Shown: piece by piece, positions 27,912-47,828 of the stretch | How the letters are laid out: the number at the start of each line of letters is the position of its first letter | How positions within the stretch are numbered: the stretch's first letter is position 1 | From: Oikopleura dioica | Taxonomy: Eukaryota > Animalia > Chordata | Direction: 5' to 3' | NCBI GenBank assembly: GCA_907165135.1 | Contig: OU015566.1 | Coordinates: 248,001-312,000, forward strand | Length of the DNA: 64,000 nucleotides | Program-made: the position numbers and the translations under genes | The notes under the pieces: generated by a model | What the model saw: the letters and a program-made list of their open reading frames with translations, nothing else | What the model was told of the DNA's origin: nothing | Database searches by the model: none

Positions 27912-28457
27912 TTACTTCATCTTAGTCACGTAAACACTGCAGGTGAGGAGCTTAGTTAGATTGTATCCGCTCTTTCTGAAACTACTTTGATTTTCGTGCT
28001 GTATTTCAACCAGTTTGGGAATGTCAGACCAGTTTGGAATGTTTTCCAGGAACTCTTTTTTAGTAGACTTGTTCTTTATCAAATGTGGCTCGATCGGGAG
28101 TCCAGTCGAAATTTGAGGCCAATGAAATCTGTATCGAGAGTCAGGATCTTCAGTCAAAATATTCTCCATGAGAAATCCAAAATCGATTTTGATCCGAAAG
28201 ACTGGTGAAATCACATCGAAGATATCTTCAATGAGATTGTTCAAATCAAAATCTTTGTTAATAAGCAATCTCAAATGAGCCGTTTCGACGACTCGTCCTG
28301 GTTTTGGAGGAGGAATGATAAGCCTGTTGTGTAGCTGACCAACTCTCTCTGTCTGTCTAAAGTAATCAAGCTCCTCTTCTTCAAGTGGTAGATGAATTCC
28401 ACCGTATTCTTTACGAAGTGCTTCTAAATCTGCTCTTTCTGATGGATAAAAAGGCAT
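27912..28457 (-). CDS. Polinton ORF (~181 aa), candidate stand-alone terminal-protein-like domain
   Basis: FRIKIDFGFLM...RYRFHWP...PHLI...SGYNLTKLLTCSVYVTK resembles the FKINxSFGFIL..RYF...VxK region at the N-terminus of many Polinton pPolBs (recalled similarity, not searched). Confidence 0.55.
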   Translation of the reverse strand: MPFYPSERADLEALRKEYGGIHLPLEEEELDYFRQTERVGQLHNRLIIPPPKPGRVVETAHLRLLINKDFDLNNLIEDIFDVISPVFRIKIDFGFLMENILTEDPDSRYRFHWPQISTGLPIEPHLIKNKSTKKEFLENIPNWSDIPKLVEIQHENQSSFRKSGYNLTKLLTCSVYVTKMK

Positions 28458-28520
28458 TTTATAAGAAAGTACCGAGAAAAATTGATTTATATTCACCCAA
28501 ATTTATTCACTTGGAACAGA

Positions 28521-31500
28521 TTAAAGGATTTCCCCGTTGAGGGTCAGTGGTTTACATGTGACGCCGTCCGACATGACTCGAAGCTTTACAAAAATATTCG
28601 AGAGAACTTTCTTTTCGATGGAAATTCGTTTCACAATATTGTCGTTAGTCGAGCGTAACATGCGAACTTTGCATGTGTTACTAGTGGTTACAGTTTCATT
28701 TAGACAATCAAGAAATTCTTGAAGTTTGAGCTCGTGATTGTGAGGAACTCCTTTCGTTGATCGCTTTGTCTGTTTGTTTTCTTCATCATAGCCAAAGTAC
28801 ATCTTGTTTCCAAGACAAACAAGTGCGCCATTATTCGTTTGCCATTCCGCTTAAAAAACTTGGTATCTATTCGAAACATCAGCAAACCTTTAAGAAGTCC
28901 AGGAGTTTTGTGATTTAGAGTTGTATCTTCAAGGACAATCCATTTATGCCAAACTTGTAGAAATTCGTCCATGAGTTCTTCCCGAACACAAGGTAGTAAA
29001 GCGGCTTCCATCTGTGACCTTGTTGTTTTACCGTCCGTTCCGCTTCGAGTGAACGCTAAAATATGATTATAAGTGACAGAAAATATAAACTTACATATTG
29101 CCAAACTGTCTGTATCGCAATAGTTCAGCTTGTAGGATCCAGGTCTCAGGTATTTGTGAAGAAATTTATAAACAAAGGAGAGAAAGTGAAGTTTCGAGTT
29201 TTGAAGAATAGCCACACCAAGAACAGTTGGCTTGTCATCTTTGATGCGTAACTTGTCGAAAATGACTTCGGAAATTTCATACTCACCGTTTTCTTGAGAG
29301 AGTGTCTCATGAGATTTAAATGTTGGCTTTATAATTGACTTTTTCAGTTGCTTATCATTGTTAAATTTGGTATTTGGTCGGTCGACCTGTTCGATGGCTT
29401 TACCGAAACCACCGCAATTGCCAATCGTTTTAAATGCAAGAGCAAGAGCAGTATTCTTGTCATCAAGAGCATTGACTCGACCATGAGTAATATTGTCAGC
29501 ATAATCACTTAGACTTTTAGTTGCTCGAAATTGGGTGAAAGATTGAATGTTAGTTACTTCTAAGCCTAGGTCAAGATAAAATTTCACTAATGTTGTCAAG
29601 AGAAACATACTCTTACCATTATATGTTTGTACGACCGTTTCTTGATCGCATTTGCTTCCGGTTTTTTCAAATTGAGCTTTCATATAAGGACTCAAATGCT
29701 CGTTTGTGATTTTCATTCGCTGAATCACTGGCGGAAAATTTATGTACGAGATTTGATCAAAGACCTCTTTCGGACAAGAAACATCCGCTACAATAAATCC
29801 ATATATCTCGTCATTTCGAATGCCGTCGAGAATGCTCTTTTCGGACTCTTTGAGTTTAAATATCCGACCCCAGTATTTTGAAACACGGTCGACATAATAT
29901 CTATTACGACGATGGATCCATTCACATTCGCGCATAATATGAACAGTCCCTTTTCTGGACAAAATGCGCTTTTTCTTCTCAAACTCATGGTCAGCCTGAC
30001 CTGGATTGCAATCAACGCAGTATTGATGAAAATAACAACCTAAGAACTCAAAATAGTGATGTTTTCCATCAACACAAGCGTAGCCATCAATTTTATAATT
30101 AAGAACCTGATGCTCACCCCTGAAATATTGATGTTCGAGTCTGAGTCGCTCACCATTAGCTTGAACCAACAAGGGGCTGAATTCATCAATATATGTGAGC
30201 CACTGGAGTGCGGCAAGAGAGTTATCTGTCGTCATGATCGATTTGCGGAAGACGGAATTGTCGATTTTTTGCCATCGTATACCTTATTATATAGTGAGGT
30301 CAGAAATCAAAGAAGCTTTACCTGGGGTGGATGGTAGCAACATTTTTTGAGCGAAGAGGTACAAGGCATTGAAGTCGAAAAAGACTATCTTTGTGAACGG
30401 ATCCCCATTCGGCGCAAACTTTGCATTTTCCGGAGCATCCACGTCGGGTCGAAGTTCAGTATAGCGAGAGTAGACGTTCACAGGACCACCAATTATATTA
30501 TCACGTAAGAGTTTGTGTTCCTTGTGATAATTTCGGTGGAACGAAACTATATAAATGTCATGAAAGTCAACAAGAATATCTTACATGTAAGCGGGGAATT
30601 CTTCGAGTAACCTTCAAAAACACACGCCATCGCAAATTTGGGCAAGCTCATACAGAAAGAAGGGTCAATTTTAAAAGTCTCGAAAAATAATTTGAATTGA
30701 TTGTCAATTGCTTTCGCAAAAGGGGTGACATCTGTCAAATTGTAGTGTTTGAGCCAATGACCCATAGAATAATTTTGATCTCGTCTTTGATTTCTATAAA
30801 ACTCAGATCTGAAAAGTTCATAATCTTCCTCAGAGATTTCCTTATTCTTGAGACTAGAAAAAAATTCATCTCTTGGAGGGAAATTTTTATCGTTCATGAT
30901 ATCAAAGACGCTGCGATATTTTTCATATGGCCAAATCGCTTTTCCTTCCTCGACTCCTCCTTGCTTGAGATATCCAGCCAAATCAGTTGGAGTGCTGAAT
31001 AGTTTGGCATCCTTGAATTGATATGTTGGCGTTGACATTGAGAAATAATGAGTGCCTTTTTTAATACTAGTGAATTTTGACCCATACTTTTTCATAAGAA
31101 TGGGTATAAGGTAGGGACTTAAAACTTTCAAATCAAATTTAGCACTATTGAAACCGTAAATGTCCATTTTCGCATAGTTTGTGAGCTCTCGTCGCAGATA
31201 TCGAACTTTCATCTTTCGCTCGGCATTGACTAGAAACTGGTCAGCAATTTTCTTGTTTCTAAATTACCTGAGTTGATATCGATGTTTTTGAGATTCTGGA
31301 TTGCATCTTTTAGCTCAGAGGGAAGATACGTTTCTTCAGAGACAGCAAGGTCTTCAATTTCGTCGACAAATTTTTGAACAAGTTGTTTCGCGGCATCATT
31401 TTCATCACTCCGCCTTATCAAGAACCGCTGGTATCCAAAATTACTCCCGATTGCGATGGAAAGAAGTCGAAGTTCCGAATGAACAGTTGTTGACTTGGTC

Positions 31501-32453
31501 GTTTCCTCAATCGGTCTCTCCATCGTTTCGATGTCAAACGTAACTAGATTTTTGAATTTTCAAAAAATCTCACAATAAAGCTTACCGAATCTTGTCTTTC
31601 TGAACTTTCTCATCTCAGAAGACAGGAAACCAGCTTGAATCGCCTCCTCGATTGGATTTATTGAGACCCCGTAAGCTCGCTGGGTTGGAGTAATTTTTTT
31701 GACACGAGCCTTACATTTCAAATCATGTTTTTTAAACAACGTCTCAAAATATGTTTCAAATCCACATTTCGGATTCAAACATTTGTAAAATGTTGCTAAA
31801 TTATTCATGTTGAAAATAAATCTGAGGGTTAGCGCGTTTTCGGACATAAGCTCGTCTTTGTCAACAATAAAGTTGAGAGTCCGCGTAGAGTCATCGGCTC
31901 GAAATGTTTGCAAGAGCTCTAATTTGACTTGTGAACGCTGGTCAGGCAGATGAGACGTGCCCAAAGAGAAAAAATTTGTCTCCGCATTCAATTTTTTCGC
32001 ATATTTTGATAATTCCCTCGAAAAGACTTGATCCGGTCCATCGAATAAACTTAATCCCTGAATTTTAAACGAAAAATCATTTATGTTCTTGAGTCTGCCT
32101 TTTCTGTCCAATTTACTGAGAAAAATGTCGAAAGAATAAAGGTAAAAATATGACTCGCCTTCTTCAACAAATTTTTGCGATTTTTTAACAACCACATCGT
32201 CAACTAAAACAAGTTTTATCGATTTTTTACATTTAGACTTCACTCTAAGGATTTCAAGTTGATAAAAGTCTAAAATTGGTTCCGTGGCAAGAGAAGAGCT
32301 ATTTACTGATAGATGGTAAATATGGGAAATGAACTGTCGATGAGCTAATTTTCCGTCCTTAAAAAGTTTGGTGTAATCCTCTGTGCATCGCTGAAGCTCT
32401 CCGAGAGTTATCCATGGATTTAACCCAGGAAAAAAGAGATTATACCTTTTCAT
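28521..32453 (-). CDS. POLB: Protein-primed family B DNA polymerase, 1232 aa after removing 6 introns (31544-31585, 31230-31267, 30547-30584, 30283-30321, 29056-29094, 28850-28887)
   Basis: Exo I VTFDIET, Exo II FNSAKFD, IIGGPV, pol A DFNALY, pol B KTIGNCGGFG, pol C YCDTDS, TPGLLKAE and STKGV; the spliced length of 3699 nt is in frame. Confidence 0.95.
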
Positions 32454-32494
32454 GCTTGAGACTTGACGCTCACTCTTTTTATAACAACGTTGAC

Positions 32495-32554
32495 TTGCGC
32501 CACCAGCTCAACCAAATTCTAAAAAGTCAATTTTGCGCCACCAGCTCAACCAAA
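32495..32554. promoter_or_regulatory. Perfect 22-bp direct repeat upstream of pPolB
   Basis: TTGCGCCACCAGCTCAACCAAA at 32495-32516 and 32533-32554. Confidence 0.6.
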
Positions 32555-32612
32555 CTCGATTTCGCGACTATTTCCTGCAAATAAACAAAACAAAAATTAT
32601 TTCAATGGACGT

Positions 32613-33092
32613 CTATTGAATCTCAACTGAGTAGAATGAAACAAGCATGAAAACAGGGTAACCAGTTTGGATAGAAACGGCCAGTTCGAAGCCCTGTCGT
32701 CGCAGGCGGGATCGGCGGCGTGGAGTTCGATCAACAAGGAGAACCGCGGAGTCGACGACAGTAAGATGGAAATTTTCTTGCTCGGCGATGCGGGTGCAAA
32801 GTCGTCCGTCCAGGTCATTAAACTCGTCGCTACCAATTACGACGTCCATCGTATAGGGATGAAGAGCTCCAAGCCGAAATCGGACAAGCTGGAGAACGCC
32901 ATCATCGTTCTTGACGCAGTAGAAACCTTTGTAGCTAGTCAGCCAAGGATGTGTCTCAGCGGCGGTGTAAATCAATTCCAGAAAAAAGCGTAGCTGAGGA
33001 ATGGGGTGTGTTCGAGCCGTTTCCATCCGAAAGTCAAGGTCAGGCTGATCGTTACCGGGTTGCTCAACTTCCAGATCGCTATCAGAATCCAT
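32613..33092 (-). CDS. Polinton accessory protein (159 aa), paralog of 34099-34602
   Basis: Clean ATG ORF; shares PWL..Y.G...V..G..QL..F...IGSD and a C-terminal YS motif with 34099-34602. Confidence 0.8.
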   Translation of the reverse strand: MDSDSDLEVEQPGNDQPDLDFRMETARTHPIPQLRFFLELIYTAAETHPWLTSYKGFYCVKNDDGVLQLVRFRLGALHPYTMDVVIGSDEFNDLDGRLCTRIAEQENFHLTVVDSAVLLVDRTPRRRSRLRRQGFELAVSIQTGYPVFMLVSFYSVEIQ

Positions 33093-33297
33093 CTTCTTAA
33101 TCTTTCTCGATTTTCGGACTAAGTCTTTGAGCTTTTCGAAAAAAAAATTTTGCTGTCTTCTTTTCCTTCAGCTCAGCCTTTTTATTTTCAACTCAATTTC
33201 TAGCGCCTCGAATTCTGAAAAGCGCGCCGCGAGTCTGAGCGCCATCGGGGAAATGAGATAAATCCGGGATCAGGGTGAATTGTGAGTATAATTGAAA

Positions 33298-33902
33298 ATG
33301 TCAACTATTGACTATCAATTAAAACCCCTCCCAGAGACTGAAATTGTTCTTTTTTGTCTCGGCTGCGACAGAAAAAATACAGACAACTACCAAGTCGATT
33401 ATCTGGAGCCCGATGATGACATAGAAGACAAAGCTTTTAGCGTTTGGCTGGTATGCGAATTCTGCGCGAAGGAAATAACAATCGCCTTTACTCCTGAGGA
33501 ATGGAACCTTTTCGCCAGTCAGGCTGACAAACAAGAAGACCAATACTTTTCGAGAGTTTCAGCAGTCGCATTTTGCAAAACCTATTTGCTTTCGGATTGC
33601 TACGGTGACTTGTTTATCAAAGCTCAACAACGAAAAATGGCTCGACGAGAAATTGACAAAGATGAGGAAAAAGTTTGTATCTTTTGCCACGAAGATGATG
33701 TCAAAATGGTATTTCTTCCGATTTTCAGCATTCTTCTAATTATTTTTAGATTTCTAGTCCCTGCAAGCATTTTTATTGTGAAAAATGCTATGCGAAACAT
33801 CGCGAAATATCTCCACGAAAAGATGACTGTGCGTTCTGCAGAATTCCATTTCGATACACCCGATTCTCCGACATTGTCGCTGAAAAAAGAAGAAACGACT
33901 AA
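33298..33902 (+). CDS. C3HC4 RING-finger protein with N-terminal CxxC/CxxC zinc ribbon (187 aa; intron 33709-33749)
   Basis: Spliced sequence CIFCHEDDVKMISSPCKHFYCEKC...CAFCRIPF. Confidence 0.9.
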
Positions 33903-34098
33903 AAGATCTTTTCGCTTTCACTTTTCTGTCCATGTGCACCTAGGCAATCTGTTTTCAATAAAAGAAAGTGCATGAAATTGAAGGTGCGTGTAATTTGCAG
34001 GTGACATATGACCTTAGTGAGGCGCTAGAACTCAAGCTCTGATATAAGCGAAGGTTTGAAACAAGAATCATCAAAAATTGAAATAAGTCTTTTTCGAA

Positions 34099-34602
34099 AT
34101 GGAAATCAACAATCAAAACGAGTTGGCCCCTTCTTATGATGACGTTCTGAATGAAGAATATGAGGCCCAGCAGCGAGAAAATGAATTTTCATTATTTCAA
34201 ATCCCCGGCTTAAAACGAAAAATGAAAAATTTTGCCAGAAAAAGCGTCACAGTTCCATGGCTCTATGACTACCGAGGATATATTATTGTCGGACGGTCTG
34301 AGAATGGTACTGTCCAGTTGTTGCAGTTTTTGGAAGGACTGCAAAATTCGCGCATGATGACAGCGACGATCGGGTCAGATGCCGACATCGACATTTCTGG
34401 GACGCCAGTTTTTGCAATGGGATCGCTGCCAGATGCTAGAAAAATGAATATCGTCAGCGTTAACGACTTCATTGCAATCACCGACGATAGGCTGCTCCAA
34501 ACAATGGAGCTTGAGAATGAAGGAACTCAGCTTGCGATTACAATGGACGACGACGGAGAACTTCACTACAATATGGTACGAATCTACTCAATTACTCTGT
34601 AA
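34099..34602 (+). CDS. Polinton accessory protein (167 aa), paralog of 32613-33092
   Basis: Clean ATG ORF with the similarity noted above. Confidence 0.8.
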   Translation: MEINNQNELAPSYDDVLNEEYEAQQRENEFSLFQIPGLKRKMKNFARKSVTVPWLYDYRGYIIVGRSENGTVQLLQFLEGLQNSRMMTATIGSDADIDISGTPVFAMGSLPDARKMNIVSVNDFIAITDDRLLQTMELENEGTQLAITMDDDGELHYNMVRIYSITL

Positions 34603-34762
34603 TTCTTTCACTACTGTTCATTCTCGATTGTTGAGAATTTTTCCTGCTCTTTCATTTTCTTTCTTTGTTTTGACTCATGCAAACAATCTTTATTGAAATA
34701 AAAGTCCTTTTTTCACTGCAATAACTGTTTATTTTTTTTTTGAGGCAAAGTGGATGGGCAGT

Positions 34763-35676
34763 CTAATATTTTTTAAGGCTGTGATTGATGGACAGGGTAG
34801 TCGGTTGTTTTCGTTGGCGAACTGCTCGAGCTAGAATGTTTGTTAGTTCAATTTCCTTTTCTTGTGTTTTTCTACCTTGCTGCTCAACGGATGGCTGGGC
34901 GCGAGTGTTTGTTGACGCGAGTGTGGACGTTCGAACTGAAGCGTTCCACGGAGGTCGGCAGGCGATTTGTGATGCTTTCGGTTGGGACAAGCGAGCGGAA
35001 GATTTCTTTTGTGCGGAAGCGGAAGGAAGTGCGCGTGCGGTAGTTTGAATGCGAGGAGTAGTCATATTTCGTGATGTGGAAGATGTTCCAGCGAGAGAGA
35101 TTGGCGTAGAATTGCGTGCTGCGGAAGTTTGCGAGGTAGTTCCAGTCGAAGACGCAGCAGAAGCATTTGCTCGTGGACCGGTCGTGGAGAGGTCAATTGG
35201 TAAGTCGAAGGAGTTGTCCCACTCAAGTTCAGGCACGCCAGTCTGAGTTTGCGCTAAAAATAAGAATTATTATGAGCTGGTTCGAAAAAATATCTCAAAC
35301 CTTGTGGCTGCTGGGAGATCGTTTGCTGAGAAGAAGGACGCAGAGCTTCTTGTCGATGAGCTTCTTGTTGGGTAGCGCTGGAATGCTGTGCTTCTGGTTG
35401 ATGAGTAGCAGGTCTTGTTGAGGTTTTCACGACGACGATGGCTGAATAATAATGTCAATAACACGATAGCAAATTATATTTATTTTGTATGAAATCAAAT
35501 ACCTTGAATAATAAGACGAAAGACGAAATAAAGCCAGATGAGGATGATTACAATTATCGCAACTTCTTTAGAAAAGAACTTGATTAAACAGTCTTTACTT
35601 GGCTCAAAAAATTGTCTAATAAAGATTCTAACAGATTTTTGAACCCTTATCCTGAGTACGAGACACAAAAAATCAT
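34763..35676 (-). CDS. Single-pass membrane protein C (~253 aa; introns 35616-35659, 35442-35502, 35254-35300)
   Basis: MIFCVSQFFEPSKDCLIKFFSKE, TM VAIIVIILIWLYFVFRLIIQAIVVV, then an S/T-rich tail; phases are compatible. Confidence 0.65.
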
Positions 35677-36124
35677 GTCTCTATCGCCATCGTTTCCCTG
35701 AGGACTTGTTGTCGTTTCCAGACCTGTTGGCATCGTTGGTTTAGGCGACATCGTTGTTGGTGGTCTTCGACCCATCATTCTTTTGTCTCTCTCTTAAAAT
35801 TATAAGAAAATAAACTATAAGAGAGTGTCCTTTTTAGCAGATATGAAGAACTTGGAAGAAAGGCACACGATCGAAGAGCTGGCAGATAGTCAGATGAGTA
35901 GAAACGCTGGTAACTTGGAGGATTGAAAGGATGGCACACGGTAGAAGCGCTGGCGGACGGAAGAGATGAGTGGAAGCGCTGGCAACTAGGAAGAAGGCAC
36001 ACAGGAGGCTGAAGATGATATCAGACTGATTGTTTATGATTTTGGAAGCTTACATGAGTTATTGAGGTCTAGATGTCTTCTGGAAGATGTGTAGGTCGTG
36101 AGATGACCAGGTCTATGTTAAGTT

Positions 36125-36422
36125 TTAGTAAAATGGTTTGATTGATTTGGATGACTTACTTCGCTTTGGAGTGGCTGGCTTCTTTTTGGTGATCAAAGCA
36201 ATGAGAATTACCATCAGAAGAAAGCAAGCTCCGACAGCGGACAAGCTTGCGATCTGGAGAATGGAGTCCACGTCGACTTTTTCTTCCATCGACTCTTGAG
36301 AAAATAAGTAAAGTATATTCTCTTGTGATCTCTAAGTTACCTCGACAGGCACAGAGGGCGCCAACTTCTTCTTCAGAAACGTAATCGAATCTGTATTGAG
36401 CGTAAAAGTCGCAGTTTTCCAT
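36125..36422 (-). CDS. Small single-pass membrane protein B (>=83 aa; intron 36295-36340)
   Basis: Cys-containing N-terminus, TM ILQIASLSAVGACFLLMVILIALI, then TKKKPATPKRSK. A 5' exon may be missing. Confidence 0.65.
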
Positions 36423-36516
36423 GATTCGAGGTTCAGTCTTAGAATTGAAAGAAAATTAGAAGTTTCTCTATTCCGTCAATTATCGTTCTAATCTACAATC
36501 AAATTTCTTTCTTGTC

Positions 36517-37126
36517 CTAAACTTCTTCTATTCGGGATTGCTCTTCCTTCTTCTTTGCTCGCCAGAGACGATTCAATCGCATCCAGTCCGGTCCAGGAGT
36601 CCAATTCTCATCTTTCTTCTTTTTTGTCGTGACTTGCTCTCGGATCTCTTCGTCGTTCTTTGATCGTTCATTCTTGACATCAGGCTTTTTGTCTTTTGTC
36701 TTCAACTCTTCTTCGCTTCTGTTATCTTTGTTAAATTGTTAGTTGGAGTCAAATTGTCTAAAATTACCTTTGGGATCCTTCCTATCTCGAGAAAGAGTCG
36801 ATCTGCAGCAGTCTGTGATTGATCTTCTTATTCGCATTTCGTATTTTTTGTAAATCATGAAGAAAAACCAAAGCGTAGAAGTAACTGCCGCTGGAAATTA
36901 TTTTTAAATATTTGGAATTGATAATTAAATGTTCTTCAGTACCTGTGAAAACGGCTTGTTTTAACCAACTGAAGTTGGTTGCTTCAATTGGGTCCGCTTG
37001 ATTGTTAACAGTTGTTAACTCGGTGACCAACTCACATGGGGAGACAGAGGATGTGCTTGTCGATTCGGTCGGAATTTTGGTCGTAGCAACTTCTCCTCCG
37101 GAGAGATTTATGGGAAATCGAGTCAT
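36517..37126 (-). CDS. Single-pass membrane protein A (171 aa; introns 36891-36942, 36726-36767)
   Basis: S/T-rich N-terminus, TM AVFTAAVTSTLWFFFMIY, then KKYEMRIRRSITDCCR and a charged tail. Confidence 0.7.
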
Positions 37127-37537
37127 CTGAATTTCAAAAATGATATATCTCCATAAGCAAGAAATAATTTAAAGAAGAACTTGAAGATTCATTCAATTGA
37201 AGTAAAAGCAAATATGAGACTTAATTCAGAAATAAATTTTAATAAAGATAGTCGTAAACGACTAGGTTTCTTACAACTAGTATAATTGAAAAACTTAAGG
37301 TGATTTCTCTTAGTTTTCTCTTATCTTCAATCTTTTTCTCTGTTTTCGAATTCTATGAAAAGTCTTGTGCATGAACTTGCAGCGAGTGAAGTGTGTGCTT
37401 GAAATGAGCCTGCCCCTGAGCAGGCGCCTCACTGATTCGCCCGTTCAACCCCCGCTCGCGAGAACCTAGCCTGAGAGAGGCGCGCTCACCGCAGGTCTAG
37501 CCACGCTGGCGCCAAAAAAAAACGCAATCAAAGCAGA

Positions 37538-38002
37538 ATGAGAGAATTCAAATCCGAGCGCCCCTTGACCTCGTGGGAGCGCGCGACCATCAAAGCCGCT
37601 ATCGACGCAAATCTCGACTCAGTTTCCGACCTTATCAAAGGTATTTTACTCCTTGGAATTGCACAAGTTCATCATCTTTTAGCAGAGAAAGAATACAAAA
37701 AGGATGTGAACTTAGTCACGCAAATGATGTTGAAGATGAAAATAACCGACGAAACAATGGAAGTTGAAACTCGATCCTTTCTTCTGGAATTCATCAAAGG
37801 TAGTTTTACTTCCGGCTTTAATGAATTTATGACTTTTCTAGCAGAAGAATTCAAGAAGGACGTCGAAAAAGCAACGATAATGATGGAGCAGATGACGATT
37901 AGCGAAGGAACAATGGAATGGACGAGTCTTCTTGAGAAAATGGAGATCGATAGCGAGGACGAAACTATGGAATACGATCAGATGGACGCAATGGAAGAGT
38001 AA
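37538..38002 (+). CDS. Polinton accessory protein (154 aa) with internal K(K)DV...MM..M.I.(D/E).TME repeats
   Basis: Clean ATG ORF after a GC-rich bidirectional intergenic region containing GCGCCAAA. Confidence 0.8.
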   Translation: MREFKSERPLTSWERATIKAAIDANLDSVSDLIKGILLLGIAQVHHLLAEKEYKKDVNLVTQMMLKMKITDETMEVETRSFLLEFIKGSFTSGFNEFMTFLAEEFKKDVEKATIMMEQMTISEGTMEWTSLLEKMEIDSEDETMEYDQMDAMEE

Positions 38003-38306
38003 TTTATTCACAGATATCTCCACCTTTTGATTGATAAAGCCTTATTGAAAACTTTCTTTTATTGAAAGAAACTCTTTGATAGATAAATTCTCATTGATAA
38101 TGTATTTCTACCGTCTCAAAACTAGCCATGACTGATAACCTGCCTTTTATCCCACTTCAAGTGCCAAATTTTGTTCAAGCTTCAAATTTTCTGCGCTATA
38201 TTTCGTAACAGTTCCAAATCTAACCTGCCAGTAATATATGACAAAATAAACTCGTTAAATATCAATCCATTGTGTTTTATTAAACACCTACAGGAGATAG
38301 AGCAAA

Positions 38307-38552
38307 TCAAACCCAAGAATCTTGAGGAGACAAAGCAGGATCAGAATCAGTAACAACGATCGAGGCTCTTTTCGCAGTCGATTTCTTCTTTGCTTTCATC
38401 TTCCAAATCTTAATTACCATCCAGCAGTAAGCAGCAAGCGCGAGTACAACTAGGGTTGTAGCAGCTTTGTTCTGACTGATGATTTCTTCCTTGATTTTGC
38501 AAATCAAGTCGAGAAAAGTAAATTCATCTGAGACTGGTGCGCTGCGATTCAT
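38307..38552 (-). CDS. Small single-pass membrane protein D (81 aa)
   Basis: TM AATTLVVLALAAYCWMVIKIW followed by KMKAKKKSTAKR. Confidence 0.65.
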   Translation of the reverse strand: MNRSAPVSDEFTFLDLICKIKEEIISQNKAATTLVVLALAAYCWMVIKIWKMKAKKKSTAKRASIVVTDSDPALSPQDSWV

Positions 38553-38719
38553 TTTTTTTTAAGAATGATATTTTCGAGCTATCAAGCTCATTTTTATGCC
38601 CTTGATCAATGCTTCAAACCAGTGCTAGAAAAAACAACGGAAGTTCACCAAAGCATGTTTATTGAAAGAAATAATCACCGGAAGTAAAGCAACAGGAAAG
38701 TTTGCAAAAAGGAAGAAAT

Positions 38720-40270
38720 TTAAAGTTCGGTAAAGGTTTTTTCTGGCGTCACGTTGGCGGGAGGATCTTCTTCGTCTTCCATCATCTCGGCGGTTTCATC
38801 GATGAATTCAGCAGTTTCTCGCGTGATCAGTCCCATGGAGAGTGCTGTATCCAAGGTCTCCCCTAAAAGGTACGGCGATAAACAGGCATCGATTATGGTA
38901 TCAGGAGTACCTCCTCTTGACGGATTCTCCAGCTCCGATTGCAGCTGTCGGATTTCTTCTGCTCTCGCTTGCGCGTCGTTTTCATCGACGATCTGCTGGA
39001 ATTGTTCGGCGTCCAAGGAGCCAAAGGTATCATCAGCGTACGCAATGTCGATTGCTAAATTATTGTTAGACAAGGATTTAAAAGTTCAAACTACCTGGGA
39101 CAACTTGATCATCATCGTCAGAGGAAGGATCTCCGGTCAAATCAACTTGATTAAAGTTAACATAAGCTTCAATAAAAAAGATTTACTTGTTGTGATTGCT
39201 GAAGCCATCATTTGTTGAGTGGTAATTGGTCGGAATACGGGAACCGTAGGTGATCGAATAACAGATGACCGTCCAGCCGGAGAAGGAAACTCAAATGGTG
39301 GAGGACGAGGAGAGTCAAATGGAGGAGGCGTCGGCGGTGGCGTGTACATCGAAGCTCGGCTTGTGGAAGGTTGGCACATGTCCCAGGTCGTTTGGGTCCA
39401 GAGTTGATTTTTTTGCGATTTTGGTCGAGCCGCCCATTCTTCCTCGCTATCCGGTCCAGTCTCAGCTCCGCTATCATCGTTGTTTTCATCTACGTCGTTT
39501 TCCTCAGCTGAGACACCCACTCCAGCTATACCGTTATCTTCAGCAGCGATAACCTCTCTCGCAGCGTCTGCCTCGTCGTTGATCTCGGCGTCATTATCGC
39601 TTCCAATGTCAGTTTCATCATCATCTTCAAGCTGATCAAACTGGTCGACTTTCTGTCGTTTTTGTTCTGACTCATCAGTTTCGAATAATTTTCGTTTGAC
39701 AGCTAAAAAACAGTTCTGAAATCGCTTTTAAAATAAATTTTACCTCTCGTTTTTTGTGGAGTTGTTGGATGGTAGGTTTCCTCATCGTCTTCAAGCTGAT
39801 CAAACTGGTCGACTTTCTGTCGTTTTTGTTTTGGCTCATCAGTTTCGAATAATTGTCGTTTGGCAGCTAAAAAACCAGTTCTGAAATTGCTTTAAAAATA
39901 AATTTTACCTCTCGTTTTTGGTGGAGTTGTTGGATAGTAGGTTTCATCATCAGAATCATCTTCGGAGGAGGAAGCTGCGCTGGAATCGTCAATGTCAATT
40001 TCACCGTCTGAGTTCTCAATCATGTCTTCGAGTCTTGCCACAAGGGGCACGTCAAAGTCCAAATGATCCAGTAGTCCGCCTTGATATAAATAAGTATTTG
40101 AAAAGACTCAAGAATAACTTACGAACTCGTCGAAGATAGGTCTCTTTATCGACCGCCATAGTGTATTGGTCTCTGATCGTGGTCCAAAGTGCTTCGAGAA
40201 GGAGTATAAATTGGTTGGTAAGGTTGTAAGCTTGAGCAATGCCGTCGGGATTCGAGGGAAGATCGAACAT
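38720..40270 (-). CDS. Acidic/disordered 447-aa protein with tandem TPxK + KRxLF modules (introns 40080-40122, 39867-39908, 39703-39743, 39146-39186, 39055-39094)
   Basis: Five 40-43-bp GT-AG introns join the pieces to 1344 nt in frame. Confidence 0.8.
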
Positions 40271-41144
40271 CTTTTAAAATCTAGTTTTGATATTTGATGA
40301 AATTCCCTCATCTTGTTCCGGTTTTATCGGCGGGATCAGCGCGCTAACAACTTGCGCCGCACTCGTTCGCGTGCGCCGCCCCTTCCGCCGGAAGTAAACG
40401 TATCAAAATACAATCCTGTTTCAACGCACAAATGTTTTAATCCGGAGGAACAAACGAATTGGCATTCAAATGTTGAAGTCAATTTTACCTTCAAAAACTG
40501 GACTAAGTCAATTATACCTTCAAGACTTGCGTGATGCCAATGATACCTCTCAAGAATGGCCAGATCCCAATAATACAAATCAGATCTGATCCAAATTATA
40601 CCTCAGACAACAGCTCTGATCCAAATAATACCTACTAACGATCAACTTTATTACGTCAAATTACAGCAAGAGTCAGAACAAGCTTATGGCAGAAAACATC
40701 ATGATATTCATCTTGTTTCATTTCATTTATTAAGAAAAATAATTTTTGTTAACTCTGTCATTTTGATGTGTCTGATTCTACTGTTGTTCGATTATTTATA
40801 CAGAGCCGGCGCTGCTCTCAAATTTTCAGCTTGACTTATCATCCGAAACTATCTTTACCCATGACTTACCATTCACCCATGAAGTTGAAAATTTATGTCA
40901 GCAAACCTTAGTTGAAAATCAACAAAAACTGTTTCCGAAAATCTAAGTCTGTAAATCCGATCTCGTTATTTGAAATTTGCTAACCAAAAAAGCTGAAATA
41001 CCAATTTTTAAACAATTTTTATTCACACCGACACATAATGGAGCAGAAATTAAAAGTAATCGAAGCAGGTAAGACAGATTTGTTGACACCGATATGAAAA
41101 GAAGTAGAAATTTGGAGTTAACGGAGTAGGGAAGACAGATTTAT

Positions 41145-41651
41145 TTATGCGGAAGTTCCGGAGCGTGGCGGTGGAGCAACAACTTGATTGTCTCCGTCAA
41201 TGTAAATTGTTCCTGTTTGCTCGGGCTGCGTTATAACATCATCGTCAGGCGTCGTGCCCAAGTTCCATCCAAGAATTGATGTTGATTTGAAGACATTTTC
41301 TTGACCGCAAACGGGACAGTCATGAGATGGCTCTTTTTCAGGTTGAAACGGCGAAGCGTACCGGAAAATGTACGCTTTTGGCTCATTTCTAATCTGCTCA
41401 GACAGTGTCTGAAGAGCCTCGCGTTCGATCTCGACCAGAAGCTCCTTCTTAGTGTGGCGAAACTCGAGCAGATGAAGGAACTCAACCTCGAGTTCATGTT
41501 TAGTTCGAATAGGCAGACGGAGCTCAATCTCTTCTCCTGAGAATCCATCAGGAAAGAAATTATCTGCATTTGAGATCACTGCCGCGTCAATGTAGAAAAC
41601 TCCTCCTTTGTTTGCGGTGTGAAAATCAAAGTTTTTAATTGTAACGATCAT
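41145..41651 (-). CDS. Polinton paralog family member 1
   Basis: MIVTIKNFDF...GGVFYID motif shared with the next two ORFs. Confidence 0.8.
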   Translation of the reverse strand: MIVTIKNFDFHTANKGGVFYIDAAVISNADNFFPDGFSGEEIELRLPIRTKHELEVEFLHLLEFRHTKKELLVEIEREALQTLSEQIRNEPKAYIFRYASPFQPEKEPSHDCPVCGQENVFKSTSILGWNLGTTPDDDVITQPEQTGTIYIDGDNQVVAPPPRSGTSA

Positions 41652-41953
41652 TTTGCGAATGAGAGAAGAATCATTTTTGCTCCTGAAGTTCAAATGCACT
41701 GGCTAACCAGTGCTCTTTTTCTAGCCTTGTGACCGCCTTTCCGCTTCCTATGCTTATAAACAAAAGATCCTGCTTCAAAGAACAACAAAAAGATTAATCA
41801 CCGACATTTATTTTCACCGAAAAATATTTACAAAGCAAAGCACCACAGTATAAAAGTAAAGAAAAGGAAGCGTCACAGTCATTCTAAAAAAGTACAGAAA
41901 AGCAAAGCACCACAAATAAAGACTAGAAAGTTTCAAAAGTTGTATCTGTAGAT

Positions 41954-42307
41954 TCAGCACTTGGTAGCCGCCCATTTGTCAATATCGGCCATCAGTATGG
42001 ACAATTCTCTGTTGGATTCTTTTTTTCCAGCTTCTTTTTCTTCCAAAGTAAGAGGGTCTTCAAGACAGCGTATTTGCACAGGCTTTTTTGAGTTGCATAA
42101 TTCCGTTAGAAGACGAGATTCCATCTCAACCTCTTGCTTGGTTGAGACTGTTATCTGGACATGGAACCTGAATTCGTCAACCAAAACAGGACAAGTATCG
42201 TCGATAAGCGGGTTGCAGATGGCATCAATGTGGAAAACTCCTCCACAACCGTTCTCTTCAAAATTGAAGGCTTCAATTTGAAAAAAATGTTCTTTGGATT
42301 GAGTCAT
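41954..42307 (-). CDS. Polinton paralog family member 2
   Basis: FQIEAFNF...GGVFHIDA...TKQEVE matches member 1. Confidence 0.75.
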   Translation of the reverse strand: MTQSKEHFFQIEAFNFEENGCGGVFHIDAICNPLIDDTCPVLVDEFRFHVQITVSTKQEVEMESRLLTELCNSKKPVQIRCLEDPLTLEEKEAGKKESNRELSILMADIDKWAATKC

Positions 42308-42528
42308 TTTTTGTTGAGAATGAGATCACTTAGAAATTCTACTATGAGAGTCAAAAGCGCTGGAAAAATCAGCGCCTGCTTTGGATCACTGAGTCTGCTC
42401 GAGCGGAACTTTGCGTCTTCAATGTTTATAAATAAAGAAACCTGCTCGAAAGAACGACAAGGAAGTAAAAAAACACCAAAGTTTATTACTCGAGTAAAGA
42501 AGCAGAAAACGATCAGAAAACGAAAAGA

Positions 42529-43125
42529 TTAGATGGACATTGGTTGTTCGGAAGTCGGCTGAATTGGAGTTGACTGAGTTGGAATTGGCTGGATGGGAGA
42601 TGGCTGGATTGTAGTTGACTGAATTGGAGTTGACTGCATCGGAGTTGGCTGGATCGGAGATGACTGGATTGGAGTTGACTGCATCGGAGTTGGCTGGATC
42701 GGAGATGACTGGATTGGAGTTGGCTGAATAGTAGTTTGCTGGATGGGAGATGGCTGGATTGTAGTTGAGTGCATCGGAGTTGGCTGGACGGGAAATGACT
42801 GAATCGGGGTTGGCTGAATCGGAAGTCGACTGAATCGGAAAGTGTACGAAGCGGGGATATTGTGCTCTCTTTCCCAGTCGGATTGCTTTGACTCGGAAGT
42901 AAGGTTGACGGACGCAGGTTGATGAGATTCTGTGAAGGACAGAAGAGTAGCGAACGTTTCAGAAATTTCAGCTGCAGTCTTTTCAAACATTCTCAAGTTG
43001 ATTTCTGAAGCAGGTTGGGTGTAGTCGAAATGAGTCTCAAAGCCTGGAATATAAGTTCCCTTGACTTTGAAAAATCCGCCTCCGTTGTGTGATCGAAAAG
43101 TGAAAGATTTAATCGTGACAAACAT
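42529..43125 (-). CDS. Polinton paralog family member 3, with C-terminal 5-aa (15-bp) QPTPI-type repeats
   Basis: MFVTIKSFTF...GGGFFKV; repeat array ~42545-42830. Confidence 0.8.
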   Translation of the reverse strand: MFVTIKSFTFRSHNGGGFFKVKGTYIPGFETHFDYTQPASEINLRMFEKTAAEISETFATLLSFTESHQPASVNLTSESKQSDWEREHNIPASYTFRFSRLPIQPTPIQSFPVQPTPMHSTTIQPSPIQQTTIQPTPIQSSPIQPTPMQSTPIQSSPIQPTPMQSTPIQSTTIQPSPIQPIPTQSTPIQPTSEQPMSI

Positions 43126-43226
43126 CTTTTTGAGAATGACGAAAACGACCAAATCAAGTCCAGAAGTGCTAAAGCACTGGTTAGTCAGTGCATCTTTTAC
43201 TACCAGTGATTCTTTTATGTTTACCT

Positions 43227-44535
43227 TTACAATAACGTTTTTTCGACTTGTTTATGTTCGTCAATCGTAAGTTTGACAGACACAATCGACCATATAACAA
43301 TGTGATAGTCATCGTCGTCATCTAGTGGTTTGTTGAAATCAAATGTGAAGGAGAGCCATCCTTGTGATATTTCCTCGCCCTCAAATTCATGAGCGAAAAT
43401 TGCATTGCTCTTGTACGCATCCATGGATGTCACATAAGACAAGTTGCTTTGAGAGATTCTTCCAAGAGCATTTTGAAATTTCCAATAAGGGAGAATTGGA
43501 TACTGATTCGTGATTTTCTAGGAATATGATAAATTTTTTTATTCTTCTATGTTATCTTACCTGAGGATATCCATGGAGCGACTGCCCGTTTAATGTAACG
43601 TTTATTTGCGTAAGATCCTGATGAAAACTGAAATTTGTGGACTCAAAAGCATCCGATCCAAACAAGGCATCTGTTTTGATGAGTCCAAAGAACATGTACG
43701 CGGGTGTATTTCCACCAGTAACATTGAGCAGCTGAACTTGCTTACGACCTTTTGGTAAAGCCATTGTCTTTATCATAGTGTCATTAAATTTGTAGGAGAT
43801 CGGTTTCGATTTGATTCTCGCAAAATGATTTCTCAAGCTTGGAGAGGACACATATTCAACCATTGCATAGGCATCTGTTATTTTGAGAGCTTCTCCAGCC
43901 GGCAACTTATCATTTGGGTCGCTTCCAATAAAAATTGTAGAGAACTCATGCTTTAAACGGTAGAGCGTCAGTGATAGATCAGTGTTGAGAGGAAGAGGTT
44001 TATTTTCAAGGAAGAATCCGTGAGTAGGTAAGAAGATGAGTTCGTAAACATAATTCCCATCAGAGTTGACAAAGCAGCCTGGTCTCCTACCGTCTCTGAT
44101 TTCTTCCTTAGCCGCATCAGTTGCAAGTGTCTCAAAATTGTACTCGTCGTAGTACCCCTCGATCTGGAAAGCAGTCATCACATATTGAGGATCATAGTTT
44201 GTCAGCTTTGTCAGATAATCAGCGAGCATATAATGCGCGCTAAGATAACAGTTAGCCATATTTATGAACACAAACTCTTACTTTGAATTGGAATTATCAA
44301 TTATTTGAGAATTCACGGCAACTTCTGTTTTTCCAAACTGTTTGCTTGCGAATCCATTGCAGGGGATGTAGTTCTTGTCCAGTTCGATCGTAAAATGAAT
44401 CGCAATGTTGTTTTTGACGAGAAAAAGATTTGGATCCGCATCGAAGTGGAAATGAAGACGACCGGTCAAACTATCTACCTCTCTTGGATAGTGACGCTTG
44501 ACGACTTTCTGGTCGTAATACTCAACTTCTATCAT
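43227..44535 (-). CDS. PY: Major capsid protein (double jelly roll), 407 aa; introns 44240-44281 and 43518-43560
   Basis: Polinton PY-like motifs: F..D...L, NGFASKQF..V.VNSQ, YL..LTNY, LPLNTDLSLTLYR, PAYMFFGL, NFSFH, V.LNG. Confidence 0.88.
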
Positions 44536-44585
44536 AATTTCAGTCTAAATGGATAAAATTTGAAGATCGTTTTCACCAATTTTAA

Positions 44586-45005
44586 TCACCAAATATGAGA
44601 GAGTTTGTCAAAAAGGAGTTGATCGTTTTCAGAAAGATTTTTAGAAAAGATAGAGGAGAGTTTTTTCAGAGAATAAAGGGAGCGAAAGATAACATAGAAA
44701 CAAACGTAGAAACCACAGTAAAATGACGCATCTGACTGAATTCTTTTATAAAAATATCTTTTTCGATCACCAAAAAAGTCGGTTAACTCTTTTGGATATT
44801 TTCCTAGTTTCAAACTATCAAAAATCTCGATTTTTGACTTTTCAAGACGAATTGCTATCCAGTGAGAACCTTTTGACTTTTCTGGTGAAAGATTAACAAC
44901 TAGAAAAGCAGGATATTCATAAAGAGAAGGTAATGTATCAATAGAGAAAACACCAAGGAAATTTTCTACACGTTCTAAACGTTTAGCAATATAGTAAGAG
45001 TTCAT
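44586..45005 (-). CDS. PRO: Adenain-like cysteine maturation protease (139 aa)
   Basis: VVN...GSHW, FDS, IQS...CGFY (H/D/Q/C catalytic residues). Confidence 0.92.
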   Translation of the reverse strand: MNSYYIAKRLERVENFLGVFSIDTLPSLYEYPAFLVVNLSPEKSKGSHWIAIRLEKSKIEIFDSLKLGKYPKELTDFFGDRKRYFYKRIQSDASFYCGFYVCFYVIFRSLYSLKKLSSIFSKNLSENDQLLFDKLSHIW

Positions 45006-45217
45006 GCTCTTTTCTTTTTGGACGACTTCTTTGACTTTTTCAAGTCTTTTGTTGTAAAATTTCTTTTTTTCTTTGGTTTTGAGGAAGGTTTTTTTCTTGC
45101 TGGAGTGAGTTTGAGTTTGGTTGGAGCTTTTTTTGATTTTCTTTTTCCTGCGCCCGACTGAGATTTGGGAAACCATTTTTTTGGTCGACTTTCGAGCGCG
45201 GAAATAATGGTTTTCAT
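45002..45217 (-). CDS. Small highly basic protein (71 aa), candidate virion core protein
   Basis: Very K-rich; QSGAG motif of the QxGxG type; positioned between the minor capsid candidate and the protease. Confidence 0.6.
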   Translation of the reverse strand: MKTIISALESRPKKWFPKSQSGAGKRKSKKAPTKLKLTPARKKPSSKPKKKRNFTTKDLKKSKKSSKKKRA

Positions 45218-45576
45218 TCTCTTGTTTTAATCTCGATCTGGAGAGAAAAGTGTTGGACAACGTGTTCTTCGCCTAAGTCGATTGAGAATCTCGTATCCCG
45301 CCAGTTATATACGTTCAAGGGGAAGAAAAGGGAGCGTTGGTCGGGAAAATGGCACCACCTATCGTTTGGACGGAGTTGACCCATCTGCAGCGTATTAGGT
45401 TGACCATAACAAGAAGCAATCGAGTTAAATTCAATGAAACAAATGTCAACGTCACGTGGAGTGGTCATGAGATTACAGACAGCGCTTACAATTTGAACAC
45501 AGTATTCTTCGTTGTTATCAAATAAAATTTCAGGAACTTTTAGTTCCTTGCTTCTTCCGAAAAGATTCAATATCAT
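45214..45576 (-). CDS. Probable minor capsid (penton, single jelly roll) protein, 120 aa
   Basis: Beta-strand-rich, FFPLNVY...RFSI motif; typical position next to INT and PRO. The assignment is inference. Confidence 0.5.
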   Translation of the reverse strand: MILNLFGRSKELKVPEILFDNNEEYCVQIVSAVCNLMTTPRDVDICFIEFNSIASCYGQPNTLQMGQLRPNDRWCHFPDQRSLFFPLNVYNWRDTRFSIDLGEEHVVQHFSLQIEIKTRE

Positions 45577-45582
45577 TGGCGA

Positions 45583-46839
45583 CTAGATTGAGTTCAAATA
45601 ATACTTTATTCGAGGTTGACGATTTCCTTCTTCGTCAGCAATTTTATACCAAACTATACCAGCTCTTTGACGGATGTCTGTGATGATGTAAACTTCGTCT
45701 GACCAATTTTGGGTGTATCCTTTTTCGAAAAGTTCTTTTTTCTTTTTTACTCTCACTACGTTGCCAACTTTAAGTCTGGGCTTGACTTTCAAGTCAATGT
45801 CGGGATAAAGTCGAGTGAAAACCTGTGCTCTATTTTTTGGTGAGACTTGGTTTGGAGCCATGCCAATGGAACGATGAGGAGTTGAGTTATACCCTTTTGT
45901 TATTGCCGGGAGAACATCAATCCATGTTTTTGTCTTCTTAGTTTTCATGAAAAGATGAATACGTTTCCTGAAGGTTTGAATCGCACGTTCTGCTATCGCC
46001 GCCTTCATTTTACTTTTGATACTATAGTGATGCATTCCATAACGATCCAGAATTTTTCGCACATTTGAGTTGTAAAATTCCAGACCTTCATCTGTAATCA
46101 AAGAATTCGGCCACTCCAGAAAATCTTGAAATATATCGTTGAGAGCATTTGCCACATCCTTTCCAGATTTTGTTTTGAGTGGTCTTGTCCAAACATAGCG
46201 TGAAAAACAGTCAATGATGAGAAGAATAAAAACGTGATGTCGATTAGAGTATTTGAGTTTCTGGTAATCAATAAGATCACCCTGGAATATTTTGAACTGA
46301 GTGTCAACAATAAATCGTCGACGAGGAAATCGCTTTTTGGAAATACGACGATGGGTACTCGACACTTTACTCTTCCTGAGAAATTCCGCTACTTTCGCTG
46401 AGAACGCTGGAGCGCTTGCCACGTTTTCGTGAAGGGCTTGAATCTGATCCTCCAGAGCTGACTTCTTCGGAGCTTGGACTTTCGGATGAGTTTGAATTTC
46501 TTCTTTGCTTCGATTTTTTTGATTTTTCGTCTGAGCTGACGTATTCGGTACTGGATTCGCTTGAGGTTGAAGGACGTCTTCGCTTATTCTTTTTTGATTT
46601 TGATTTCTCGTTCTCGGAACTGTCGTCTTCCGAAGACGCTTCGCTTGAGGTTGACTGTCGTCTTCGCTTCTTTGTTTTCTTTTTTGATTTCTTGTCGACA
46701 CTTGACTTCTTGTTCCGCTTTCTGGATCTTGACCTTTCAACCTCCGACTCTGACGAGTCTTCGGTAAAACTGTCGCATCTAATCTTTGATTTGACTCTGG
46801 TTGATTCAACTGTTTTGCACGGCGGGTTTTTCTTCGCAT
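45583..46839 (-). CDS. INT: Retroviral-like (rve) DDE integrase of Polinton type
   Basis: FQGDLID, IDCFSRY, ITDEGLEF, IAERAIQT, YNSTPHRSIGMAP; basic N-terminal extension. Confidence 0.95.
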   Translation of the reverse strand: MRRKTRRAKQLNQPESNQRLDATVLPKTRQSRRLKGQDPESGTRSQVSTRNQKRKQRSEDDSQPQAKRLRKTTVPRTRNQNQKRISEDVLQPQANPVPNTSAQTKNQKNRSKEEIQTHPKVQAPKKSALEDQIQALHENVASAPAFSAKVAEFLRKSKVSSTHRRISKKRFPRRRFIVDTQFKIFQGDLIDYQKLKYSNRHHVFILLIIDCFSRYVWTRPLKTKSGKDVANALNDIFQDFLEWPNSLITDEGLEFYNSNVRKILDRYGMHHYSIKSKMKAAIAERAIQTFRKRIHLFMKTKKTKTWIDVLPAITKGYNSTPHRSIGMAPNQVSPKNRAQVFTRLYPDIDLKVKPRLKVGNVVRVKKKKELFEKGYTQNWSDEVYIITDIRQRAGIVWYKIADEEGNRQPRIKYYLNSI

Positions 46840-47590
46840 CTTTCTTTTCAACTGCCTCGAAAGTATTGTCTCTGTCGATTATATCGAAATTTTGCTTAAA
46901 ATCGTTGTATGGTACGATGCAAGCCTTCATTCCGCTAACTGAGAAGACAACTGGATAATCGGAGAATATATCCGTATACAGTCGATAGCTTGAGGCATGG
47001 CCTCGAGGTGATTGATCCAGAAACATGTACGGATACTGCTTATTCTTGTTCTCTTCCGTCGCTCTTTTGTAAGCTTTTAGAAGTCCAGCTTGACTACAAG
47101 CACGTTTGTTAACTGTTCCATCAAGACAGTTTCTACAGAGAAATGTCGCGTTACAGTTGAGCTTGATATTTCGTCCGAATTTTCCCTGGGCATAGTTATT
47201 TTGAGTCATTATCATCACGTTTAGATTTTTCTTTCCACTTGTAACTCGAAAAAGATGATCAATTGCCTGACTTTGAATTGCTTCCTCGTACAAATCATCA
47301 AGTACAATTGTTGAGTGTGAGGGAATCTCGTCAATTTCTTCTTGAGAAGGCAGACCAACCCTGTAACTAACAGGGATACCAAGATCATCCCATTGGACAG
47401 GCTTATCTTCAAGAAAACAAGGATAAAAATAGACAACACGTTTTGTTTTCTTCTGAAAAATATCTCTGTGTTGTAAAACTTGCTTTGCTAGATAGGTCTT
47501 TCCAGCTCCTGATGATCCGCTCAAAAGAATTCTGTAAGGATAGGCAAACCGCATATCTGGTAAAATTTCTCCATTTATTATCGTACTCAT
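46367..47590 (-). CDS. ATP: A32/FtsK-like DNA packaging ATPase with S/K/R-rich C-terminal tail (407 aa)
   Basis: Walker A GSSGAGKT, Walker B IVLDD, LF...S...NLNV...TQN. Confidence 0.93.
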   Translation of the reverse strand: MSTIINGEILPDMRFAYPYRILLSGSSGAGKTYLAKQVLQHRDIFQKKTKRVVYFYPCFLEDKPVQWDDLGIPVSYRVGLPSQEEIDEIPSHSTIVLDDLYEEAIQSQAIDHLFRVTSGKKNLNVMIMTQNNYAQGKFGRNIKLNCNATFLCRNCLDGTVNKRACSQAGLLKAYKRATEENKNKQYPYMFLDQSPRGHASSYRLYTDIFSDYPVVFSVSGMKACIVPYNDFKQNFDIIDRDNTFEAVEKKDAKKNPPCKTVESTRVKSKIRCDSFTEDSSESEVERSRSRKRNKKSSVDKKSKKKTKKRRRQSTSSEASSEDDSSENEKSKSKKNKRRRPSTSSESSTEYVSSDEKSKKSKQRRNSNSSESPSSEEVSSGGSDSSPSRKRGKRSSVLSESSGISQEE

Positions 47591-47743
47591 TTTCTCTTTT
47601 GCTTCAATTTTATTTCGCTCATCCTTTTTATTTATAAAATAAAGCGTTGGATAGGAATTTAAAATAATCAAAAATGAAATTTTATTTGGATAATTTACGG
47701 ATATACAACGGAACTTATTGATTACGAAAAAAATTAACATTGA

Positions 47744-47828
47744 ACTTCCGGCTATTATTTATCAACTGCACTTCCGGCCAGAAAATACGTGTTTCCGGTC
47801 CGGAAATACTTGTTTCCGGACCGGAAGT
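47744..47828. promoter_or_regulatory. Cluster of six CCGGAA (ETS-type) cores upstream of the ATPase
   Basis: ACTTCCGG twice, TTCCGGTCCGGAA, TTCCGGACCGGAAGT within 85 bp. Confidence 0.5.

Follow-up and report, generated by a model that had tools for sequence, protein, structure and literature searches.

We analysed a 64,000-nucleotide (nt) stretch of the Oikopleura dioica genome (assembly GCA_907165135.1, contig OU015566.1, positions 248,001 to 312,000 of the forward strand), hereafter the window, in whose own coordinates all positions are given. The window contains an integrated Maverick/Polinton element. Its polymerase, capsid and accessory genes are interrupted by short GT-AG segments that are common to distant relatives, and these segments are very likely spliceosomal introns inherited within the element lineage. 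The original prediction placed the element at 27912-47590; we found that it occupies 22126-47878 (25,753 nt), approximately 6 kb more on the left. It is flanked by a perfect 6-bp target-site duplication, CCCCTT (22120-22125 and 47879-47884), of the length that characterizes Maverick/Polinton insertions. The left terminal inverted repeat (22126-22198, plus strand) pairs with the right one (47804-47878, minus strand). Each is approximately 75 nt long, and the two share identical 16-nt tips and are 80% alike overall, in contrast to the long, near-identical repeats typical of Maverick/Polinton elements.

The largest gene (28521-32453, minus strand; seven exons and six introns) encodes the DNA polymerase pPolB. 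Exonuclease and polymerase motifs were located in its exons, which identifies the product as a protein-primed family B DNA polymerase, and PF03175 was matched by the homologues P0005-P0009. Motif B (29380-29420, minus strand) has one additional residue and a Phe for the usual Tyr, a variant common to P0001, P0024, P0025 and P0173 and absent from P0003-P0008. The named homologues closest to the element are O. dioica gene models, and one of them, P0002, shows no difference from pPolB exon 5 over the aligned part. Pfam and PHROGs searches returned no family name for the pPolB or the major capsid protein (MCP) of the window. The MCP gene (43227-44535, minus strand) has two introns. Its first fold model was unusable (pLDDT 39), and a deeper alignment yielded a usable one. 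The homologue P0233, which is 41% identical to the window protein, gave a model with a pLDDT of 87 that matched the double-jelly-roll MCPs of PBCV-1, iridovirus and mavirus in Foldseek (E 1e-14 to 1e-12). Together with the Atlas neighbours of P0018, this model predicts that 43227-44535 encodes a double-jelly-roll MCP.

Three further core genes are single open reading frames (ORFs) on the minus strand. A retroviral-like (rve) integrase is encoded, from stop to stop, at 45583-46878 (PF00665, E 3e-10). A packaging-type ATPase with Walker A and B motifs, weak P-loop matches and a long Ser/Lys-rich tail lies at 46367-47590; the tail shares approximately 510 nt (46367-46878) with the 5' portion of the integrase ORF, which is read in a different frame. 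An ORF at 44586-45005 carries H, D, Q and C motifs in a pattern that we take to be that of an adenovirus-type cysteine protease; library searches with this candidate gave no match, and PDB sequence searches with it and with pPolB gave none either. The integrase, ATPase and protease candidate are thus intronless, as originally predicted. The same had been claimed for a minor capsid (penton) protein and a core protein, for which no candidate ORF gave an informative match in library searches.

We next describe the interruptions. The six pPolB segments (31544-31585, 31230-31267, 30547-30584, 30283-30321, 29056-29094 and 28850-28887; 42, 38, 38, 39, 39 and 38 nt) all begin with GT, end with AG and lie in phase 1. 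The two MCP segments are also GT-AG (44240-44281, phase 2, 42 nt; 43518-43560, phase 0, 43 nt). In a RING-finger gene (33298-33902, plus strand; 187 amino acids (aa)), a 41-nt intron at 33709-33749 falls inside the RING domain, with PF13920 recognized on exon 2 (E 8e-6). A gene for an acidic 447-aa protein (38720-40270, minus strand) has five phase-1 introns of 40-43 nt (40080-40122, 39867-39908, 39703-39743, 39146-39186 and 39055-39094), the second and third of which derive from an exon duplication. A 211-nt contig from sequencing run X12 matches only the second intron of this gene (39868-39907, 8 differences in 40 nt), possibly by chance. Read with an X at each break, the joined frames contain no internal stop and give exactly the lengths that had been claimed: 1,232 codons for pPolB, 407 aa for MCP and 447 aa for the acidic protein. 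The claimed size range of 38-43 bp holds for the 14 introns of pPolB, MCP, the RING gene and the 447-aa gene, but for only one of eight candidates in three membrane genes. The claimed total of 20 likewise stands for the first four genes (6, 2, 1 and 5), whereas the membrane genes hold eight candidates rather than six, and the list lacked further candidates at 37538-38002 (two of 42 nt) and at 26183-27168 (five of 41-44 nt).

Several properties of these segments are those of U2 (major-spliceosome) introns. They are bounded by GT and AG, AT-rich and host-like in size, and their removal restores collinearity. In pPolB and MCP, seven of the eight would introduce a stop or a frameshift if retained. 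On the same strand, 16% of random points lie within a 38-43-nt GT-AG segment of the required frame, a share that falls to 3% if the ends must look canonical; under the looser rule, all eight core breaks would be bridged by chance with a probability of approximately 5e-7. Rfam gave no match of any kind in 21500-48500, hence none to a group I or group II self-splicing intron, and the segments measure 38-61 nt compared with hundreds of nt for such introns. Apart from one duplicated pair, the 29 introns and candidates are mutually unlike (mean likeness 0.34, compared with 0.32 after shuffling), and no consistent flanking duplication was found around them. Phase 1 accounts for 20 of the 24 modelled introns, including all six in pPolB and all five in the 447-aa gene. 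More introns are in phase 1 than the available AG| or G| sites would predict (P = 8e-5 and 5e-4, respectively; 3e-4 and 1e-3 with the duplicated introns left out). We regard this unexplained bias as a lead, given that the accessory models are hand-picked.

Alignment to intronless relatives placed the segments as insertions. The 1,230-aa single ORF P0008 from ENA contigs (35% identity; PF03175), whose cluster has four members of this length, could be aligned over each of the six pPolB junctions; gap columns numbered 0-3 per 25, and introns 1, 2 and 6 had none. The gene models P0003 and P0004 (46% identity) showed 0-1 gap columns at the junctions. Similarly, eight single-ORF MCP relatives (380-399 aa, 40-44% identity) crossed both MCP junctions without insertion. 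Because these alignments are almost free of gaps, the segments are insertions relative to the intronless proteins, bounded by GT and AG.

To locate introns in other families, we used the fact that intron-blind gene callers run into introns, so that the ends of relatives' proteins mark donor sites. Among 159 pPolB relatives, seven ended at intron 5, four at intron 3 and four at intron 4, with a run-on C, S or G as expected from a phase-1 GT. The intron-5 ends fall right behind the DTDS motif in proteins 35-62% identical to that of the window. Ends without a clear donor-type run-on, or offset from the site, were not counted (two of six at intron 3, two of six at intron 4, one of eight at intron 5, and three at intron 6). 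Nine of 48 MCP relatives (47-89% identity) stopped at intron 2 and ran on with Val, and several at 30-35% identity started just past intron 1. Ten other MCP relatives ended near residue 381, a site that has no intron in the window MCP. In the cluster of the O. dioica models CBY15127.1 and AAS21407.1 (approximately 60% identity), exon fragments end or start at pPolB introns 1, 4 and 5. Ends in the JGI/ENA cluster of P0053 (64%) mark pPolB intron 3, and exon fragments in the cluster of the O. dioica model CBY10622.1 (approximately 50%) mark both MCP introns. A contig scan found no relatives of pPolB exon 5 in viral contigs and none of MCP exon 2 in metagenome contigs.

In a FastTree phylogeny of the 109 of 162 proteins retained by coverage, the window family lies inside a 16-row clade (SH 99), and intron-5 ends occur on three of its branches. 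This clade is nested in a 52-row clade (96) whose raw gene calls stop at other recurring sites. P0028, P0032, P0033, P0068, P0070, P0023 and their relatives show recurring stops that are absent from the window, in pPolB motif B and near MCP residue 381, with donor-like run-ons. For several of the recurring stops in the wider clade, protein length is equal within clusters whose contigs reach 11-16 kb. The C terminus was reached by 2 of 44 raw calls within the 52-row clade compared with 40 of 49 outgroup rows, a comparison that is biased because distant matches need length to score and that we take only as a lead. A small gene behind pPolB is split in a related family and uninterrupted in the window, which indicates that intron sites also turn over.

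We then compared the window with sister copies of the element. Every one of the 30 bins of 28050-48040 is represented in the DNA-type sequencing runs X2, X4 and X5, and their contigs that are approximately 82-85% alike to the window retain the GT-AG segments. Record 14 of X4 (approximately 82% alike) crosses pPolB introns 1-4 at nearly equal length (2,086 nt compared with 2,092 nt). Other diverged contigs depart from the window at an acceptor, either that of pPolB intron 1 or that of intron 6, or within the first few bases of intron 5. The original prediction would have been contradicted by sister copies in which the segments were variable indels unrelated to GT-AG ends, and no such pattern was seen. 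Exact intron removal occurred at none of the 15 joints listed, with 32 further joints lying outside that list. The pPolB exons are under coding constraint: among the 40 of 3,036 differences that were listed, 15 of the 17 exon variants are synonymous changes at third positions. A second gene set is near-identical to that of the window (P0220, and P0221, whose MCP is 99% identical), and a single O. dioica assembly has at least seven distinct named gene models of pPolB. Because sister copies keep the segments and diverged families stop at the same sites, the introns belong to the lineage and are not the decay of one copy. One X4 contig links positions 28078 and 41170 on opposite strands, which suggests a copy with a different gene order.

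Polintons replicate from DNA to DNA and so, unlike retroelements, do not purge introns, and genes expressed in the nucleus meet the host spliceosome. Against this background, we propose that host RNA polymerase II transcribes the element's genes in the nucleus and that the host major spliceosome would remove the 38-61-nt introns. pPolB would then copy the element from DNA to DNA and the integrase would insert the copy. As this cycle has no RNA step, daughter copies would inherit any intron once gained. Gain probably proceeded one intron at a time while the lineage resided for long periods in hosts whose introns turn over fast, and the differences in sites between sub-lineages would reflect gain and loss. 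O. dioica introns peak at a length of 47 nt and 76% of them are at new positions, according to the available part of a published survey (PMC4122922), which makes such host introns a possible source of those in the element. The originally proposed intronization of this lineage in a host with tiny introns is therefore supported, both by this host intron size and by sites common to families at approximately 50-60% identity, some of these sites also occurring in relatives near 35%.

Several observations weigh against this interpretation. In the RNA runs X9, X10, X6 and X8, which carry the same species label and of which 4-59% each was read, we found no spliced reads. The partial reads (15, 25, 1 and 0, respectively; 41 in total) contain no joints, come from diverged relatives (most less than 95% alike) and cover no junction. 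Record 3 of X12, a run that is RNA only by guess, has a spacing of 579 nt over MCP intron 2, compared with 582 nt unspliced and 539 nt spliced. If this record is mRNA, the intron is retained there; it spans two genes, which fits either DNA or precursor RNA. Between 59 and 121 of the 159 pPolB relatives cross each site without an intron, so that only part of the clade has them in common, and common positions could also arise if introns were gained in parallel at favoured sites. The relatives' intron sites were deduced from protein ends rather than read in their DNA. Finally, terminal repeats that are only 80% alike fit an old and possibly immobile insertion at 22126-47878. The suggestion that the element may still be functional thus finds support in coding constraint and in the near-identical second gene set, but not in the short, imperfect repeats or in any splicing observed.

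Considering these points, we weighed four alternatives to introns inherited along a mobile lineage. An unlikely one, although the most plausible of the four, is that real introns arose only once the element had integrated, in an old copy by then immobile or co-opted by the host, so that the lineage does not move with them. The state of the terminal repeats would fit this history, neither an empty site nor a new insertion was seen, and segmental duplication could have produced the near-identical second gene set. It does not account for the same sites in families at 50-60% identity or for the separate pPolB gene models in one assembly; the copy also still has the full set of mobile genes, and its target duplication is perfect. 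We consider it somewhat less probable still that the introns are inherited but mostly retained, with splicing acting as a gate that silences the element except in some cells. The Drosophila P element offers a precedent for such a gate, X12 record 3 appears unspliced at MCP intron 2, and retention of nearly all of the core introns would disrupt the reading frame; on the other hand, X12 is possibly DNA and the splice ends look ordinary. It is highly improbable that the already integrated element was struck by a burst of introners (intron-making transposons), of the kind known from dinoflagellate polinton-like elements. The narrow size range of the core-gene introns (38-43 nt) and the dinoflagellate precedent, in the portion of that report available (PMC11957031), would be compatible with a burst, and old introners may have diverged past recognition. 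As the 29 segments are mutually unlike beyond one duplicated pair and lack a consistent flanking duplication, no single introner burst is visible. That this is a decayed pseudo-element in which random insertions mimic introns is scarcely credible, since chance would bridge any one break 3-16% of the time, but all eight core breaks are bridged, the joins align with intronless relatives, and both the conservation of the sites and the synonymous variation speak against decay.

Introns inherited by the lineage therefore remain our preferred explanation. A broader proposal, to which we give about equal credence for and against, is that a large, previously undescribed Polinton clade, represented by O. 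dioica records and metagenome contigs, acquired its pPolB and MCP introns before its families diverged to approximately 35% protein identity. According to this proposal, the clade still moves or packages with its introns, gains and loses them, follows a strong and unexplained phase-1 rule, and has been largely overlooked because surveys use prokaryotic gene finders.

The element resembles animal Mavericks/Polintons in its pPolB, integrase, ATPase, protease candidate, double-jelly-roll MCP, terminal repeats and 6-bp target duplication. It differs from them in its short, imperfect repeats and in the six pPolB and two MCP introns common to several families, where other animal elements are reported to have an intronless core. 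The literature cited here was available to us in part, and what we say of it holds for those parts. The 134 intact vertebrate Mavericks are reported to lack introns (PMC8097293). In nematode Polintons the core genes are intronless (all of them in a C. plicata element) and the cargo bears introns (bioRxiv 10.1101/2022.07.12.499685); the left arm of the O. dioica element is similar to these in placing intron-bearing cargo near one end. An intronless core is hence a reported trait of Mavericks/Polintons rather than a defining gene (PMC8097293), and the O. dioica element departs from it. Dinoflagellate maverick-polinton-like elements carry introners that were mostly inserted after integration (PMC11957031). 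They are alike in having spliceosomal-type introns within full-length polinton-like elements, but their introns are multi-copy and transposon-derived, whereas those described here are unrelated in sequence, conserved in position across diverged families and found in an animal host. Punuivirus, a latent giant endogenous virus of Chlamydomonas, has RNA-checked GT-AG introns in 61 of 506 genes (bioRxiv 10.64898/2026.10.09.758095). It too is an integrated DNA virus with host-type introns that are compatible with reactivation; it is, however, a giant virus with introns enriched in latency genes and a group I intron in its MCP, whereas in O. dioica the replication and capsid genes bear the introns.

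Elsewhere, endogenous viruses have been assumed to be intron-free (PMC10120064), group I introns are present in PLVs (PMC12220804), and some intron-bearing transcripts in PLV regions were interpreted as host genes or domestication (PMC10675990). Mavericks have been listed among O. dioica repeats (PMC5240408). The portions seen of four other sources (PMC10748475, PMC11296320, PMC8502044 and bioRxiv 10.1101/809541) contain no statement on introns in Polinton core genes. The public O. dioica models CAG5101819.1, CBY15127.1, AAS21407.1 and CBY10622.1 already predict exon joins at the same junctions, as unnamed or fused automated models, and we found no paper that treats them as an intron-bearing Polinton. 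No description of spliceosomal introns in the core genes of animal Polintons came up in the literature searched, which did not include the founding papers, the supplement to the O. dioica genome or Repbase. What appears new here is a Polinton lineage of an animal in which pPolB and MCP carry short, inherited introns; the gene-model junctions and the presence of introns in other integrated viruses were known.

Intron-bearing Polinton lineages would be taken for fossils or overlooked by standard searches. Raw gene calls of the relatives are fragments that end at introns, so ORF-based screens miss or fragment such genes, as the original prediction anticipated. Conserved introns in pPolB and MCP would also imply nuclear transcription and the need for a spliceosome able to handle 40-nt introns, which would limit the host range. 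O. dioica is an easily cultured animal with fast intron turnover, and orthologous intron sites in its Polintons provide material with which to follow how a mobile genome gains and loses introns.

The remaining genes of the element are accessory or of uncertain identity. An intronless 181-aa ORF (27912-28457, minus strand) resembles the N-terminal part of full-length pPolBs. The match is weak (best E 7e-4 among 281 proteins), covers residues ~50-200 of many full-length outgroup pPolBs, and the order behind pPolB is the same in P0001 and P0173. This ORF is likely a terminal-protein-like N-terminal domain that became detached from pPolB and moved downstream. Behind MCP lie three small paralogous ORFs (41148-43182, minus strand; mutual E 5e-4 to 2e-7), none tied to the minor capsid protein, and an Atlas search with an ORF at this position gave no usable match. 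The first of the three ends in a 15-nt tandem array.

The following accessory intron models were picked by hand; the homology checks covered the core genes. On the minus strand, predicted membrane gene D (34763-35778) has four candidate introns (44, 61, 47 and 45 nt), gene B (36069-36422) has two (46 and 47 nt) and gene A (36517-37126) has two (52 and 42 nt). A small gene made of a duplicated unit (37538-38002, plus strand) contains two in-frame, stop-free 42-nt candidates, which are uncertain. The left arm (approximately 22200-27500, plus strand) carries accessory genes of no known family and five GT-AG candidates of 41-44 nt (26183-26224, 26493-26533, 26790-26830, 26921-26964 and 27128-27168), as well as tandem arrays with units of 36 nt and 147 nt. 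These arrays occupy 24503-25919, where a GC-rich 36-nt coding array is accompanied by four to five 147-nt repeats that end in an 84-nt hairpin. Outside the element, a split lipase gene (PF04083) lies on the host side at 59216-63315. A 514-aa ORF without a Pfam match (17268-18812) is located between 150-200-nt inverted repeats at approximately 15000-15200 and 19800-20000, and is possibly part of another DNA transposon.

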